Shown here piece by piece: positions 2,775-54,450 of a DNA stretch of 64,000 bases (within the stretch, counting starts at the first letter, position 1; every line of letters starts with the position of its first letter). The translations under genes and the position numbers were made by a program. The stretch lies in assembly GCA_963668175.1 (NCBI GenBank), contig OY764159.1, forward strand, positions 1,312,001-1,376,000, written 5' to 3'. Source of the stretch: Syntrophales bacterium (GTDB lineage Bacteria; Desulfobacterota; Syntrophia; Syntrophales; PHBD01). Under the pieces are notes generated by a model. The model did not search any database, was not told the DNA's origin, and saw only the letters and a list, made by a program, of their open reading frames with translations.

Positions 2775-3305
2775 TTACACCAGTTTCTTCAATTCCTGCA
2801 AGAAGACGTCGTATGTCTTTTGATCGAAGAGCACGAACCGGATGGTCTTGATGTCGCCGTGTTCCTTCAGGTAATCAACGGCCGTCTTCAGGGCGATGTG
2901 TGCCGCTTCGTCCAGTGGGTAGCCGTAGGCGCCGGTGCTGATAGAAGGGAAGGCGACACTTTTGAGCCCCCGGGCGGATGCCAGCTTCAGGCTTTCCCGG
3001 TAGGCGCTTTTCAGAAGTGTCGCTTCGCCGGCCGTGCCGCCGCGGTAGATCGGTCCGACCGTGTGGATGACGAAGCCGGCCTTGAGGTTGCCGCCGGTGG
3101 TAATGACGGCCTGCCCGGTGGGGCAATAGCCGATCTGCCGGCAGGCGGCCATGATGGCTGGTCCCCCGGCCCTGTGAATGGCGCCGTCCACGCCGCCGCC
3201 GCCGCGAAGGCCTTCATTGGCCGCGTTGACGATGGCGTCCGTCTCTTCCTGCGTGATATCCCCGACAACGAGGGAAAGGGTCCCTCCGGCAATTCCGATG
3301 TCCAT
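2775..3305 (-). CDS. Macrodomain protein, O-acetyl-ADP-ribose deacetylase (YmdB-like)
   Basis: GDIT, IVNAAN, GGGGVDGAIHRAGG, SISTGAYGYP; start after GGAG RBS at MDIGIA. Confidence 0.92.
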   Translation of the reverse strand: MDIGIAGGTLSLVVGDITQEETDAIVNAANEGLRGGGGVDGAIHRAGGPAIMAACRQIGYCPTGQAVITTGGNLKAGFVIHTVGPIYRGGTAGEATLLKSAYRESLKLASARGLKSVAFPSISTGAYGYPLDEAAHIALKTAVDYLKEHGDIKTIRFVLFDQKTYDVFLQELKKLV

Positions 3306-3354
3306 CCTTATCTCTCCTTTCCGCCTGAAAGAAGGCGGCGGTCCTGCCGCACGG

Positions 3355-4938
3355 TTATGCGTCTTCCGCCACGGGGATGCCGTCCCCATAGACGAGCATG
3401 CGATACGTCTTTTCGATGCGGTCCCAGTTCTCTTCCCGGTCCATCGACCAGTACCGGCCGATCACCGAGACGACCCGGCCCAGTTTCATCTCGGCGCATT
3501 TCTTCTCGATCTCCCGGATATAAATGGCGCCGCTTTCCGGCTGCTCCCCCCTCCTGCCCAGCATGGCGTGAATGAAGAGTTCCTCGACGCCTTCCCGTTT
3601 CGCCATGTCCATCAGGGCGAAGAGATGGCGGATGGAACCGTGGGAGCTGAAGAAAGAGACGATGCCCATGAGATGGAGGGCTTTTCCCGATCTTTTGGCT
3701 TTGTTCATGGCGTAGAGGAAGGCCTCGTTCCGGAAAAAAGATCCGTCGGCGATGGCCCGGTCGATCTGTACCCGGTCCGAATAGATTCTCCTGCCGGCAC
3801 CGATGTGGAGGTGTCCGGCTTCCGAGTTGCCCACCGTTCCCGGAGGCAGGCCGACCGCTTCGCCCGATGCGGCAAGCTTGGCTGCCGGATGCGTTTGATA
3901 GAACCGGTCGAAATTCGGCGTCCCGGCCTCGGCGATGAGATTGCCCTCGGCCGCTTCGTTGATGCCCCATCCATCCAGGAGCAGGACAAGAATCCGGGGT
4001 GCGGTCAACTCCGCTGCCGTGCCTTCGATAAGGGATGTGCCCGTCATGGCGGCGGGTCTGGGAAGTCCGAGGAGATGCAGGACCGTAGGCGCGACGTCCG
4101 TCAGCTCCCCGTTGCCGCGGAGGGAAGCGGTGCAGTGCGGGTGGATGAGAATGAACGGCACGGGGCTGTCCGTATGGCCCGTATCGACCACCCCGTCGGG
4201 AAACAGCCAACGCTCGGCAGTGCCGTGGTCGGCCGTGACGATGGCCGTCAGGCCGGCCTCTTCCGCCTCCGCGACGATCCGTCCCGCCTGCCTGTCGACG
4301 GCCTCGACGGCCCGGATGACGGCTCCTTTGTTCTCAATGTGGCCTACGACGTCCACATTCGGGAGATTGGCGAAGATAAATCCGCATTCGGGATCGTGGA
4401 TCTTCGCAATGACGGCGTCGGCGATGGCCTCGACGGACATCTCCGGGGCCTCGTCGAAAAGGGCGACGTCCTTCCTGGTCGGAACGACAATCCGCTCTTC
4501 CCCCGGGAGGTTTTCCTGTTTCTTGCCGTTGAGAAAGAAACCGACATGGACCGCCTTTTCGGCTTCCGTTATCTTGACCTGCTTCATGCCATGCGCCGCC
4601 AGGACGTCGCAAAGGGTCTCCCCGATGACGTCTTCCTGGGGAAAGGCCACACGGACGTTCAAGCCCTTCCTGTATTCGATCATGGTGGCGAAGGCGCCCG
4701 GCAGGTCCTTATCGACGGGAAATTCATCGAAATCCGGGCCGGTAAGGCTCTCTGTCAGTTCGATCTCCCGTTCCCCGCGTATGTTGTAGAAGATGACGGA
4801 ATCGCCCCTGCTGATTCTGCCCGCCGGTGATCCCTCCCGCGTCGTCAGCACATGCGGTTCGAGGGTTTCGTCTTCCTTGCCGTTCAGATAGGCCGTTTTT
4901 ACGGCCCGGGACAAGGGGTAAGGATCTGAAGACGGCAT
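3355..4938 (-). CDS. gpmI: 2,3-bisphosphoglycerate-independent phosphoglycerate mutase-like protein, circularly permuted
   Basis: All iPGM motifs present (LDGWG, GNSEAGH, RYWSMDR, NxRxER, EKxxHV, NxDxVGH, TADHG, HT), but the canonical C-terminal half comes first; AAGGAG RBS. Confidence 0.85.
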   Translation of the reverse strand: MPSSDPYPLSRAVKTAYLNGKEDETLEPHVLTTREGSPAGRISRGDSVIFYNIRGEREIELTESLTGPDFDEFPVDKDLPGAFATMIEYRKGLNVRVAFPQEDVIGETLCDVLAAHGMKQVKITEAEKAVHVGFFLNGKKQENLPGEERIVVPTRKDVALFDEAPEMSVEAIADAVIAKIHDPECGFIFANLPNVDVVGHIENKGAVIRAVEAVDRQAGRIVAEAEEAGLTAIVTADHGTAERWLFPDGVVDTGHTDSPVPFILIHPHCTASLRGNGELTDVAPTVLHLLGLPRPAAMTGTSLIEGTAAELTAPRILVLLLDGWGINEAAEGNLIAEAGTPNFDRFYQTHPAAKLAASGEAVGLPPGTVGNSEAGHLHIGAGRRIYSDRVQIDRAIADGSFFRNEAFLYAMNKAKRSGKALHLMGIVSFFSSHGSIRHLFALMDMAKREGVEELFIHAMLGRRGEQPESGAIYIREIEKKCAEMKLGRVVSVIGRYWSMDREENWDRIEKTYRMLVYGDGIPVAEDA

Positions 4939-5142
4939 GGGTATCTCCTTTGCTTCGTATGAGAGTATGTTCCCGATCTGTATGGCCGGGGACGTAAGAC
5001 CATTTTTCTAACCAAATTGGCGGTGGCTGTAAAGAGAAACTTTCAGCGCAGGGCGGCATTCGCTGGCTTTTCAGTTGAAAACACGGCCTTTACATGTTAG
5101 ACGGTAAGGTTAGAAATTGTTTCGCAAAGGCCTCCGGGAGCG

Positions 5143-5553
5143 ATGCCCGAGAGGCCGGAATGTCTGGACAAGAGCGTGACGCTGGAAGCTAAAAAGACGC
5201 CGGAAAACGTCCTGCAGGAGGAACTCCTCAAAGAGAGGGCGGAAGTCCTCTGCCGTGCCGGAGAACGTCTGGCCGAGGCCCTGGAGAAGGTCCATGCGGC
5301 GGGAAAACGGATTGAGGACCTGCTGAGGGATCTCGATCGGGCGGCTGAGGAACGGGGTTCTCGGGCGAAGAAGGATGCCCTGGATGCCGTGAACCGGGAG
5401 ATCAGGGCCTATAACACGGCCCGGGACCATGCCAAGCTCCGCTACTACTATATGATCGTGACCAGGGAGGCCCTCGGTATGCGCCGCCACCACTGGGTGG
5501 ACGAGTTTTACCGGATACCCCCCAAGAAAAAACTGCTGCGGGAAGAAAGATGA
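5143..5553 (+). CDS. Hypothetical coiled-coil protein translationally coupled to pcm
   Basis: Helical charged ORF; ATGA overlap with pcm. Confidence 0.7.
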
Positions 5554-6203
5554 CGAGATACCAGAAACAGCGCGCCAAGATGGTCGAATCCCAGTTGAAG
5601 GCCCGGGGGATCAAAGACAGCCGGGTCCTGAAGGCCATGGAGACCATCCCCAGGCATCTCTTCGTCGACGAGGCGCTCATGGACCAGGCTTACAACGACA
5701 GCCCTCTCCCCATCGACGAACGCCAGACCATCTCACAGCCCTATATCGTCGCCCTGATGACGGAGGCCCTGGGCCTTGGCGGCAGGGAAAAGGTGCTGGA
5801 AATCGGCACCGGTTCCGGTTATCAGACGGCGATCCTCGCCGCACTTGCCGACCGGGTTTTCTCCATCGAGCGCATCGCCTCCCTGGCCAACCGGGCCAGG
5901 AATATCCTGGACGCCCTCAATTTCTACAATGTGGCCATCCGGGTGGGCGATGGAACGTACGGCTGGAGGGAGGAGTCCCCGTTTGACGGCATCATTGTCA
6001 CAGCAGGTGCGCCGCGTATTCCCGAGACGTTTACGGCCCAATTGGCCGTCGGCGGCAGGCTCGTCATCCCGGTGGGCAGCCGCATATCCCAGGACCTGTT
6101 CCGGGTCACCCGCCTTTCGGAGGATGTCAACGATCTGAAGACGGAAAACCTGGGCGGGTGTCGTTTTGTGGATCTCATCGGCGAGCACGGATGGGAGAAT
6201 TGA
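5550..6203 (+). CDS. pcm: Protein-L-isoaspartate O-methyltransferase
   Basis: [29 protein letters not shown] motifs. Confidence 0.96.
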
Positions 6204-51382: not shown

Positions 51383-54300
51383 CTATATCTTGGTCACGTT
51401 GACCATGAACGCCTTGTATTCAGGGCAGAAGGTGTTCGCGTCGCCGACGGTCGGCGTCAGGAAGTTTGTGCTGTCGCCGCCGTCCTTCGGGAAGAGCCAG
51501 CCGTAGTTGAAGGGCAGGCCGACCTGGTGAACGGTTTTGCCTTCTACGGTGAAAGGCTTGAAGCGTTTGGTCACCATGGCCACGCACTGCACTTCGCCCC
51601 GGGCTGAGGATACCTTAACGCGCTGGCCGTTGGCGATGCCTTTCTCCTGGGCCAGCTTGTCGCCGATTTCGACATACAGCTCCGGCTGCATTTCCAGGAG
51701 CCACATCTGCCACCGGGTCAGTGCCCCGGAGCACCAGTGCTCCGTGCAGGAATAGGTCGTGCAGACATAGGGGAATTTCTCGTTGGCATTGGCTACCTTG
51801 TCCAGATCGCTCTTGAAGATCTTGATGGCCGGATTGATGAGCTGTCCGGACAACGGATTCTTGGCGAGCGGTCCTTCCAGGGGTTCGTAATGTTCCGGGA
51901 ACGGTCCCTCGACCATGCCGGGTCCGAACAAGGCGCCGAGGCCGTCCTGTTTCATGATGAAAGGGTACTTGCCTTTCTCTTTGTTCGCCATGGGCGGCCA
52001 GGGGCCGTCAGGGACGTCCCCGACCCATTTGTCTCCCGTCCATTCCAGGAGCTTGCGCTTGGGGTTGTATGGTTTGCCGTTGACGTCGCACGAGGCGCGG
52101 TTGTAAATGATCCTCCGGTTGACGGGCCAGGCGTAGGACCAGTTGGGATAGAGGCCGAGCCCGGTCGGGTCTTCCTTGCCGCGCTTCATCATCTTGTTGT
52201 CGCCGTCGGCCGTGAAGCTTCCCGCCATGACCCAGTTGCCGCTTGACGTCGCTCCGTCGTCCTGGAGATTGCCGAAGGTCGGGACGAGCTGCCCCTTCTT
52301 GAACTCCGTCTTCGTCTTCTTCTCTTTATCCTCGATGACCGTGTCTTTGATGAAGTAGCCGTTAATCTGCTTGGAGACCTTCAGTGCGTCGAACCGGCCT
52401 TTGGCATCCGTATAGTCCCATTTGAGGTTGAGGATGGGTTCGGGGTGGACGCCGCCCTCCTTGGCGTAGAGGGCCTTGACGGCCGCCATGATCTTGATCG
52501 TGATCTCGCCGACGGGGATACCGTCGCCCGGGGCTTCCGCTGCCTTGTATTTCCACTGCACCCAGCGTCCGCTGTTGCTCTGGCTCCCTTCCTTCTCCAT
52601 GGAGGCGGAGGCGGGCAGGAGGAAGACCTCCGTTTGTATCTTCTTGGGGTCGACGCCGGGACCTCTCCAGAATTGGTAGGTTTCGTTGTCAAAGATGTTT
52701 TCTCCGACGAGCCATTCCAGCTTTTCCAGGGCCTTGCGGACCTTCGTCGTGTTCGGTGAGCTGACGGCCGGGTCCGTGCCGACGGCGACGAGCCCCTTAA
52801 TCTTGCCCTCATACATCTTGTCGAAGAGGTGCATGAGGGAATAGTGGGCGCCTTCGTCGAGCTTCGGCAGCCAGGAATAACCGAAATCGTTTTCCTTTGT
52901 CACCCTGTCGTGGAACATGGCTGTGAGGAAACTGACGAAGAACTTCGGGTAGTTCTGATAGTAGTTCGCCGACTGGGGGTCCTTCGATTCCGGCGTGCAT
53001 TTGTGGAGATATTTCTCAAGCGTATCCAGAGAGCCCGAGGGCATCTTCAGGTATCCGGGCAGAATGTTGTATAGAATGGCATGGTCGGTCGAGCCCTGGA
53101 CGTTGGGTTCGCCGCGCAGCGCGTTGACGCCGCCGCCGCATATTCCCATGTTGCCCAGCAGGAGCTGGATGATGGACATGGTCCGGATAATCTGGCTTCC
53201 CGTCGTGTGGTGCGTCCATCCCAGGGCGTAGCATTCCGTTCCCGACTTGTCGGGAACGCCGGTGGCGCTGTAAGCCTTGTAGACTTTGAGCAGGTTCTCC
53301 TTGCTGACGCCCGTGATGCTGGATACCTTGTCCAGCGTGTAGCGGGAATAATGCTTCTTCATCATCTGGAAGACGCAGCGGGAGTCCTTCAGGGACATGT
53401 CGCGTTTGGGTATGCCCTTGCCGTCTTTCTCGATAACCCAGGTGTCCTTGTTGTACTTCCGGGTTTTTTCGTCGTAGCCCGAAAAGAGACCGTCTTTGAA
53501 ATGGAAGTCCGCGCCGACGATGAATGAAGCGTTGGTGTAGTTGAGGACGTAGTCTTTGAAATACTTGTCGTTCTCAAGAATGTAATTGATCATTCGCCCA
53601 GGAAGGCGATGTCCGTGCCGGAACGTAGGGGGACATGGAAGTCGCACCGTGCGGATGTCCTGGTATAGCGGGGATCGACGTGAATCAGAGTCGCCCCGTT
53701 CTGTTCCTTGGCCCGCAGAATCCACTTGAAGGCGATGGGATGGTGCTCTGCGGCATTGCTGCCCATAATAAGAATGCAATCGCTGTTCTTTAAATCGATA
53801 TAGTGGTTCGTCATCGAACCGCGTCCGAACGACTCTCCCAGAGCCGCTACAGAGGGACTGTGTCAGACCCTGGCCTGGTGGTCGATGTAGACCATGCCCA
53901 GGGCCCTGCACTTGACGCTCATGAGCCAGCATTCTTCATTGTCGACATTGGAACTGCCCAGATGGGCGATGGTTTCCAGGCGGTTGACCACCTCTCCCTT
54001 GTCGTTCTTCTTGACAAAACTCTTGTCCCGCTCGGTTTTTATGAGGCGGGCGATGCGGTCGATGGCCCAGTTCCAGTCCTTTTCCTCCCAGTCGGTGCCT
54101 CCCGGGGCCCGGTAGAGGACCTTTTTCAGGCGGTACTTGTTGGCCTCCGTCAGATCGAAGAACCCGGCGCCCTTGGCGCACAGCGAGCCTTCGTTGATCG
54201 GATGGTCGGCATCGCCCTCGATGTTGAAAATCTTGCCTGTGGTCTTGTCCACGCTGCAGATGAGGCCGCAGCCAACGGAGCAGTAGCAGCAGGTGGTGAT

Positions 54301-54450
54301 GACCTGCTTGGCGAGCTTAATGCGGTGCATCTTGTTGAGCTCATCCGCGTAAGCCCTCATGGGTCTCAGGTCAATGCCCAGGGTCGACAACGCAATTCCC
54401 GAGCCGACAGCCCCGGACAGGCCCAAGAAACCTCTCCTGGTAATTTCCAT
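51383..54450 (-). CDS. fdnG: Formate dehydrogenase-N alpha subunit, selenocysteine-containing; 1-nt frameshift near 53595 (pseudogene or sequence error)
   Basis: Tat signal TRRGFL, CCYCSVGC, HQARV-UGA-HS; continuation ends at TDIAFLGE* and resumes in another frame at MINYIL...; LRGEPNVQG, C-terminal CPEYKAF. Confidence 0.92.
53828..53865 (-). promoter_or_regulatory. Selenocysteine UGA codon (53863-53865) with downstream SECIS-like stem-loop
   Basis: UGA at the catalytic position (codon 196) followed by CAC AGT CCC TCT GTA GCG GCT CTG GGA GAG, which can form a hairpin. Confidence 0.8.

Follow-up and report, generated by a model that had tools for sequence, protein, structure and literature searches.

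A circularly permuted cofactor-independent phosphoglycerate mutase in Syntrophales and its relatives in anaerobic bacteria

A textbook example of an enzyme with two domains, cofactor-independent phosphoglycerate mutase (iPGM) acts in central carbon metabolism and is also a drug target in parasites. In its canonical chain, the transferase domain is inserted in the phosphatase domain; for the Bacillus enzyme, we take the phosphatase domain to consist of residues 1–77 and 311–511 and the transferase domain of residues 78–310. Natural circular permutants of enzymes are explained by a model of duplication and truncation. Here we describe a permutant of iPGM encoded on a 64,000-nt stretch of contig OY764159.1 from a Syntrophales bacterium (the window, whose positions serve as coordinates throughout): its chain, P0001, carries the two halves of the canonical enzyme in swapped order. 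No paper on a permuted iPGM was found in the full-text literature searched, whose coverage lacks most subscription journals, and the string "permut" is absent from two evolutionary and structural surveys of the enzyme (Foster et al. 2010 and the PirC/iPGAM paper). The gene and its parts are as follows:

3355..4938, minus strand: coding sequence of the circularly permuted iPGM, P0001, 527 aa (open reading frame, Pfam, TIGR01307 and PDB matches)
4945..4950, minus strand: ribosome-binding site AAGGAG, 6 nt upstream of the ATG at 4938–4936 (read from the sequence)
4027..4905, minus strand: segment A, residues 12–304, equivalent to canonical iPGM 219–509 (phmmer alignment, residue table)
3994..4026, minus strand: linker EGTAAELTAPR, residues 305–315, from the old C terminus to the old N terminus (between the two aligned stretches)
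3376..3993, minus strand: segment B, residues 316–521, equivalent to canonical iPGM 6–211 (gapless phmmer alignment)

In a phmmer comparison with PDB chains, P0001 aligned to the iPGM of Bacillus stearothermophilus (1ejj, 511 residues) in two nonoverlapping stretches that came in reversed order and covered nearly all of both chains (whole-sequence E 6.8e-120). Residues 316–521 matched chain residues 6–211 without a gap (independent E-value 1.7e-61, 211.3 bits), and residues 12–304 matched chain residues 219–509 (1.4e-56, 195.2 bits). The swapped two-stretch pattern was repeated for 10 further iPGM sequences among the PDB matches listed, with 39–46% identity to each half of the solved enzymes, and such an alignment is far beyond chance. 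That P0001 is a true circular permutant of iPGM is near certain. A preliminary description of this DNA had proposed a permutant with its old termini joined by a short linker and its new termini inside the transferase (iPGM_N) domain, and had suggested alignment to Bacillus iPGM as a check; all of this was borne out, the two stretches being swapped rather than collinear and EGTAAELTAPR lying between them.

Segment A takes in the final third of the transferase domain, then hinge 2 and the C-terminal portion of the phosphatase domain, and includes R54, R57, K128, D196, H200, D237, H238 and H255. Segment B comprises the N-terminal portion of the phosphatase domain, where D322, S372 and H376 lie, together with hinge 1 and the initial two thirds of the transferase domain, which carry H433, R463, R495 and R501 and have G464 where the canonical enzyme has Asp154. 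The 11-residue linker stands in place of the last two and the first five residues of the canonical chain. On the boundaries assumed above, P0001 runs from the second piece of the transferase domain through a hinge to the second piece of the phosphatase domain, and from there via the linker to the first phosphatase piece, the other hinge and the first transferase piece. With the old termini fused and the chain opened in a transferase loop, the phosphatase domain (approximately residues 103–387) forms one uninterrupted block, and the transferase domain is divided between the two ends of the chain. The topology is thus inverted in comparison with the canonical enzyme, while both interdomain hinges, the two peptides by which the two domains are connected (Yu et al. 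2017), are retained.

Both Pfam domains of iPGM were found in P0001, each in two stretches: iPGM_N with 1.9e-55 and 188.2 bits (gathering cutoff 27) and Metalloenzyme with 8.4e-55 and 186.4 bits (gathering cutoff 24.3). Positions 1–129 of the iPGM_N profile matched residues 392–520, that is, the C-terminal end of the protein. The NCBIfam equivalog for iPGM, TIGR01307, scored 473.4 bits, above its cutoff of 330.65. The open reading frame is single and uninterrupted, and the earlier claim of one intact frame with a ribosome-binding site agrees with the 527-aa frame and the AAGGAG 6 bases before its ATG. Each motif listed earlier was found at its place, in the A half DETLEP (23–28), FYNIRGER (50–57), EAEKAVHV (125–132), NVDVVGH (194–200), TADHG (235–239), GHT (254–256), DVAPT (281–285) and MTGTSLI (298–304), and in the B half LDGWG (321–325, D322 being nt 3975–3973), GNSEAGH (370–376) and RYWSMDR (495–501). 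The last of these had been placed at the very end of the protein; it is present in the C-terminal half but ends 26 residues short of the C terminus.

The strand opposite the mutase gene carries a longer open frame (3178–4830, plus strand, 550 aa) rich in Arg, Pro and Gly, which gene calling by the longest frame would choose. We take this for a mirror frame, a by-product of the 59% G+C content.

We built an AlphaFold2 model of P0001 with a 41-row alignment. The mean predicted local distance difference test (pLDDT) score was 93.2 and the predicted template modeling score (pTM) 0.88, with lower confidence at the linker (pLDDT 82 for the block 301–310) and at both termini. In a Foldseek search against the PDB, all 17 listed matches with E ≤ 1e-11 were iPGM structures. 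The structure prediction suggested in the preliminary description thus gave a confident two-domain model with strong matches to iPGM only.

The permuted order is fixed in a large family. A protein search was run against 5.8 billion clustered proteins, and the best 120 matches listed were 64–92% identical to P0001, covered 97–100% of it and gave one collinear alignment each; the permuted matches include P0098 from the finished genome of Syntrophus aciditrophicus SB (3,179,300 bp). In a scan with one genome per species, 118 stretches encoded a relative, and 80 of them were kept as loci. The order was permuted in 80/80 loci, including the complete genome of S. buswellii DM-2 and several closed chromosomes of metagenome-assembled genomes (MAGs), and the record titles were nearly all Syntrophales, Syntrophaceae, Smithella or Syntrophus. 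The identical order in all listed matches and all loci upholds the earlier proposal of a natural permutant family.

More distant relatives were found as well. Among the best 150 cluster representatives at 50% identity, 12 were collinear with P0001 across the junction (P0123, P0124, P0125, P0128, P0130, P0133, P0150, P0154, P0157, P0174, P0180 and P0190) and 132 were canonical. In a BLASTP comparison of 271 proteins with P0001, 133 were collinear, 132 were canonical with swapped high-scoring segment pairs, and the other 6 comprised 5 partial proteins and 1 fragment. A profile built from six distant permutants listed 120 proteins, 116 of them new and four being returned query rows, which covered 95–100% of P0128; its two best-scoring matches, P0392 and P0393, are longer three-segment proteins and not simple permutants. 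In an alignment of the 120 Syntrophales matches, 122 proteins of the P0128 group (P0392 and P0393 included) and three others, none fails to span the junction. The search for other proteins of the same order, which had been suggested earlier, thus returned the Syntrophales set and a large second group, and by these sequence comparisons the permuted iPGM family appears to comprise hundreds of relatives in anaerobic bacteria. Within the second group the sole taxon name is Anaerolineaceae (P0476), and the Atlas label of the nearest clusters is "commonest Chloroflexota"; the family very likely spans two phyla, on labels as thin as one taxon name and one Atlas label.

The ends of the chain coincide within a few residues in all three permuted groups. 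The modal numbers of residues before the equivalent of A12 are 11, 15 and 7, and those after the equivalent of I521 are 5 (6 being nearly as common), 5 and 0. The linker is variable in sequence and 8–19 residues long across the family, the most frequent length being 12 for the Syntrophales set and 10 for the P0128 group.

Some members depart from the common layout. At two loci, L017 (6001–7722) and L034 (6001–7701), the tblastn match to the mutase spans approximately 1,700–1,720 nt, in comparison with approximately 1,550–1,580 nt in the other loci, at 62% identity, which suggests an insertion of approximately 50 residues in some lineages; both loci are without the downstream macro gene described below. 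P0174, a protein of 5027 aa, carries a permuted iPGM segment at residues 3859–4371 that is 38% identical to P0001 and retains Asp154; its length put it beyond the family scan, and it may be a genuine fusion of many domains or else the product of a gene call that reads through. Public names are also inconsistent within this one family, as some records use "phosphoglycerate mutase" and newer NCBI MAG records "alkaline phosphatase family protein", and the permuted order may account for the inconsistent annotation.

To compare the active sites, residues were mapped to B. stearothermophilus numbering via the phmmer alignment and tabulated in 130 canonical representatives and 242 permutants. We take the two metal sites to be formed by D12, S62, D444 and H445 and by D403, H407 and H462, and the substrate-binding residues of the transferase domain to be H123, R153, D154, R185, R191, R261, R264 and K336. 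P0001 retains the nucleophile Ser62 (as S372), all of D12, D444, H445, D403, H407 and H462, as well as H66, and 7/8 of the assumed substrate-binding residues (H123, R153, R185, R191, R261, R264 and K336). The equivalents of D12, S62, H66, H123, R185, R191, R261, R264, K336, D403, D444, H445 and H462 were found in 120/120 Syntrophales proteins and 122/122 of the P0128 group; H407 was retained in 119/120 and 122/122, and R153 in 120/120 and 118/122, respectively. The corresponding residues of the Caenorhabditis elegans enzyme are named as metal ligands by Yu et al. (2017). The conservation across the aligned relatives points to strong constraint on the catalytic machinery and on a cationic cluster that suits phosphoglycerate.

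We consider P0001 to be probably a bacterial-type, Mn-dependent mutase of 2- and 3-phosphoglycerate (GpmI/iPGM) that works in a permuted chain, with a probability of roughly 0.7. In this chain, the ancestral N and C termini, both in the phosphatase domain, are fused by the linker of approximately 11 residues, and the opening lies in the transferase-domain loop between canonical residues of approximately 211 and 219. In the reaction, Ser372 at the binuclear metal site would take up the phosphate of 3- or 2-phosphoglycerate, the Arg/Lys cluster of the transferase domain would hold the glycerate, and the other hydroxyl would then receive the phosphate. The role in Syntrophales would be in gluconeogenesis, and the loss of Asp154, to Gly in Syntrophales and to Ser in the Chloroflexota-like group, would be later than the permutation.

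A number of observations weigh against this assignment. A second iPGM equivalog, NF003897, scored 378.8 against a cutoff of 862. The sequential aligner Foldseek covered only approximately 300 columns, one half of the structure each (TMq 0.36–0.51), and because of this sequential alignment, the match of the whole fold is drawn from the two halves and not measured; half coverage is what would be expected for a permutant. The roles of Ser62, the metal ligands and the pocket residues are those presumed above. The residue at position 154 is Asp in 127/130 canonical representatives, but Gly in 120/120 Syntrophales permutants (G464 in P0001) and Ser in 118/122 of the P0128 group; furthermore, Ser124 is replaced by Gly in all 242 permutants and Asp151-Gly152 by Gly-Arg in those of Syntrophales, and with these changes the glycerate pocket departs from the canonical form. 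Three iPGMs of archaeal type are present in S. aciditrophicus (Foster et al. 2010), the spectral counts given below are higher for these than for the permutant, and no activity was reported for any permutant in the literature searched, in searches that were not aimed at enzyme assays.

The preliminary description had regarded several substrate-binding motifs as altered, and this holds for the motifs more than for the residues that matter. Changes from VHSH to SHGS, from NFRxDR to NIRGER and from ETEKY to EAEKA are present but spare His123, Arg261 and Arg264, and Lys336, respectively; the change from DGRD to GRRG loses Asp151 and Asp154 while retaining Arg153. Among the pocket residues assumed here, Asp154 thus appears to be the only one truly changed. 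The distant permutants P0125, P0130 and P0133 carry all the canonical motifs, including DGRD and VHS, so the change of the pocket can be separated from the permutation and is confined to one clade.

The presence of other mutases was assessed from published data on S. aciditrophicus SB. Foster et al. (2010, supplementary file 3) reported 0 hits for the cofactor-dependent enzyme (dPGM), 1 hit with the Escherichia coli iPGM query and 3 hits with the archaeal (Pyrococcus) query, and the permutant is the only bacterial-type phosphoglycerate mutase (PGM) of this species. In its proteome (Muroski et al. 2022, supplementary file 6), SYN_01002/Q2LUU2, a "Phosphoglycerate mutase" of 532 aa, was detected with 2 peptides and 2 peptide-spectrum matches; we equate it with P0098 solely by organism, name and length. 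The archaeal-type SYN_00891 (409 aa), SYN_02641 (402 aa) and SYN_00621 (433 aa) had 39, 6 and 4 matches in the same data (Muroski et al. 2022), and with these counts set against 2, the permutant is not necessarily the principal PGM. Archaeal-type homologs are not all mutases, however: in a preprint (GapMind 2026), complementation shows that the apgM homolog BT2402 (HomK) substitutes for homoserine kinase, and phosphotransferase activity is proposed for HomK, which is recognized by a Glu where a Lys would stand. The count of homologs in Syntrophus therefore does not fix the number of true PGMs.

The surroundings of the gene bear on a second explanation of its function. The neighboring genes are as follows:

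2775..3305, minus strand: MacroD/YmdB-type macrodomain gene, 176 aa (Pfam Macro 3.4e-44; NF001664)
5143..5553, plus strand: unnamed 136-aa open reading frame directly upstream of pcm, divergent from the iPGM gene (position kept across loci)
5550..6203, plus strand: pcm, protein-L-isoaspartate O-methyltransferase, divergent from the iPGM gene (Pfam PCMT 1.3e-61)

The macro gene probably starts 49 nt past the stop codon of the iPGM gene, at the ATG at 3305–3303, which is preceded by the ribosome-binding site AAGGAGAGATAAGG, and its product scored 218.3 bits against NF001664 (O-acetyl-ADP-ribose deacetylase), above the cutoff of 200. It is followed by a FMN reductase-like gene and a lytic transglycosylase gene. 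On the divergent upstream side there is also an M23/LysM peptidase gene, and the 136-aa frame had no match in Pfam or NCBIfam. Across the 80 loci, the upstream genes were found in 72 (pcm), 71 (peptidase) and 69 (the 136-aa frame, at 33–61% identity), and the macro gene was downstream on the same strand in 70. The ten loci with no downstream macro match all extend past the mutase gene, and in three of them a radical SAM gene takes its place.

The main permuted clade could have changed its function, applying the phosphoserine and two-metal chemistry to another substrate, or preferring such a substrate, that is possibly linked to the MacroD-type hydrolase. We regard this as unlikely, yet several observations lean toward it: Asp154 is lost and Ser124 replaced throughout the Syntrophales and P0128 groups while P0125, P0130 and P0133 keep the motifs, the macro gene follows closely on the same strand in most loci, S. 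aciditrophicus has three other iPGM-like genes, and HomK, an apgM homolog set apart by one Lys-to-Glu change (GapMind 2026), provides a precedent. On the other side, the retention of all three Arg pairs and Lys336 fits a small doubly anionic substrate, and the TIGR01307 cutoff is passed. Furthermore, the macro gene is absent downstream in 10/80 loci, and as all 80 come from or near one order, its linkage is a conserved gene order that shared ancestry explains equally well. The earlier suggestion of a different substrate tied to the macrodomain gene is unsupported. We know of no reaction linking MacroD enzymes to an iPGM-type mutase. A fuller scenario is rather doubtful: the Syntrophales/Chloroflexota-like clade would have a remodeled pocket serving another phospho-substrate, directionality or regulation, the Syntrophales members might act in one pathway with the putatively co-transcribed MacroD-type hydrolase, and the archaeal-type paralogs would carry the ordinary PGM flux.

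A mutase in a permuted chain remains the better account of P0001. On the origin of the permutation, a FastTree analysis of the concatenated segment alignments placed 21 permutants in one clade and grouped P0125, P0130 and P0133 with the canonical P0163 and P0198 (support 97). A quick IQ-TREE analysis (57 rows, 518 columns, LG+C20+F+G4 PMSF) recovered a 13-row permuted clade with support 98 and left P0125, P0130, P0133 and P0174 unplaced among canonical rows. When all 17 permutants were constrained to group together, the log-likelihood was 48.8 above that of the quick free tree, with a P value of 0.919 in the approximately unbiased (AU) test. FastTree had suggested two origins, but the constrained search and the AU test, by which a single origin is not rejected, showed that the free quick search had missed a better single-clade tree.

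Given the shared breakpoints and the AU result, a single origin is the simpler reading, and the permutation would have arisen once, though this is not proven by the trees. Repeated origin or reversion, with the Syntrophales/Chloroflexota-like clade permuted separately from P0125, P0130 and P0133, seems improbable to us. It draws on the placement of the three proteins in the FastTree and quick IQ-TREE results and on a tree of segment B only, which likewise separates them. It has to contend with breakpoints that agree within a few residues across all groups, with the better likelihood of the tree uniting all permutants and with the starred branches of the quick IQ-TREE, which require one change only; moreover, P0130 and P0133, proteins of uncertain provenance, did not appear among the 120 matches listed in the search that traced P0125 to its contig.

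The three-segment proteins P0392 (723 aa) and P0393 (719 aa) have a full-length canonical iPGM and, after it, another N-terminal segment, in the order B1-A-B2. The B1 segments carry the canonical motifs DGRD and VHS and are 58% identical to each other, and the B2 segments carry the motifs of the permuted clade, DGRS and SHG, and are 100% identical. As the identical B2 segments are nested in the crown of the P0128 group, the two proteins were rejected as a duplication intermediate; from their sequences, we read them as probable assembly chimeras or a natural secondary fusion, and not as ancestral. No convincing duplication intermediate was found among the permuted relatives, these two being the sole B-A-B proteins seen.

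That the permuted order is an artefact of misassembly, of fused gene fragments or of a decaying pseudogene is extremely improbable. The distant representative P0125 is a "partial" frame filling a 1,520-nt contig, and the chimeric-looking P0392 and P0393 imply that such artefacts occur in metagenome data. A misassembly at approximately 4000–4030 is nevertheless ruled out for practical purposes, the same order being present in 80/80 loci and in complete genomes from two cultured species of Syntrophus, one of which is the finished genome of S. aciditrophicus SB. The frame is intact behind its ribosome-binding site, purifying selection on the catalytic residues is clear, AlphaFold2 gives a confident model, and a matching protein was detected by mass spectrometry.

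The remainder of the window is an ordinary Syntrophales chromosome, with genes for formate dehydrogenase, NiFe hydrogenase and its maturation, an acetyl-CoA synthetase (ADP-forming)-like protein and ABC transporters, and no other PGM gene was found within its 64 kb. In the gene for the formate dehydrogenase alpha subunit (51383–54450, minus strand), reading the TGA at 53863–53865 as selenocysteine gives the canonical context ARVUHSPSV. The frame stays protein-like for approximately 90 residues past this TGA and degenerates near nt 53590, beyond which an 849-aa open reading frame in another frame carries the molybdopterin domains. The selenocysteine and the apparent frameshift could reflect sequencing error, a pseudogene or recoding.

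The permuted family provides a natural test of chain connectivity against the open/closed domain motion that the mechanism needs. The permutants show where the iPGM fold tolerates new termini, which is of use in enzyme engineering, and they are relevant to the reconstruction of gluconeogenesis in syntrophic degraders of benzoate and fatty acids. The loss of Asp154, near-invariant elsewhere, in one permuted clade is a concrete lead to functional change.

In comparison with described systems, the naturally permuted iPGM is a new variant of a known enzyme. With the bacterial iPGMs (GpmI/GpmM; PDB 1ejj, 1o98, 2ify and 4my4; TIGR01307), P0001 shares both Pfam domains, the nucleophilic Ser, seven metal ligands, His123, five Arg and Lys336, and, in the predicted model, the fold of two domains and two hinges. 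It differs from them in that the chain begins at canonical residues of approximately 212–219 and ends at approximately 211–217, that an 11-residue linker is present and the phosphatase domain is contiguous whereas the canonical one is split, and that Asp154 and Ser124 are each replaced by Gly and Asp151-Gly152 by Gly-Arg. The archaeal-type ApgM (TIGR00306) and HomK (TIGR02535) share with the permutant the alkaline-phosphatase-like metalloenzyme core and the phosphoserine chemistry, and ApgM-type genes co-occur with it, in three copies, in S. aciditrophicus. P0001 scores weakly against both families, with 32.7 bits for TIGR00306 (cutoff 320) and 12.2 for TIGR02535 (cutoff 446.3), and their proteins have another cap domain, a length of approximately 400 aa and an unpermuted chain. 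As in other natural permutants, the fold brings the old termini side by side and a variable linker bridges them, the new termini are located in a surface loop, and the breakpoint is shared across the family.

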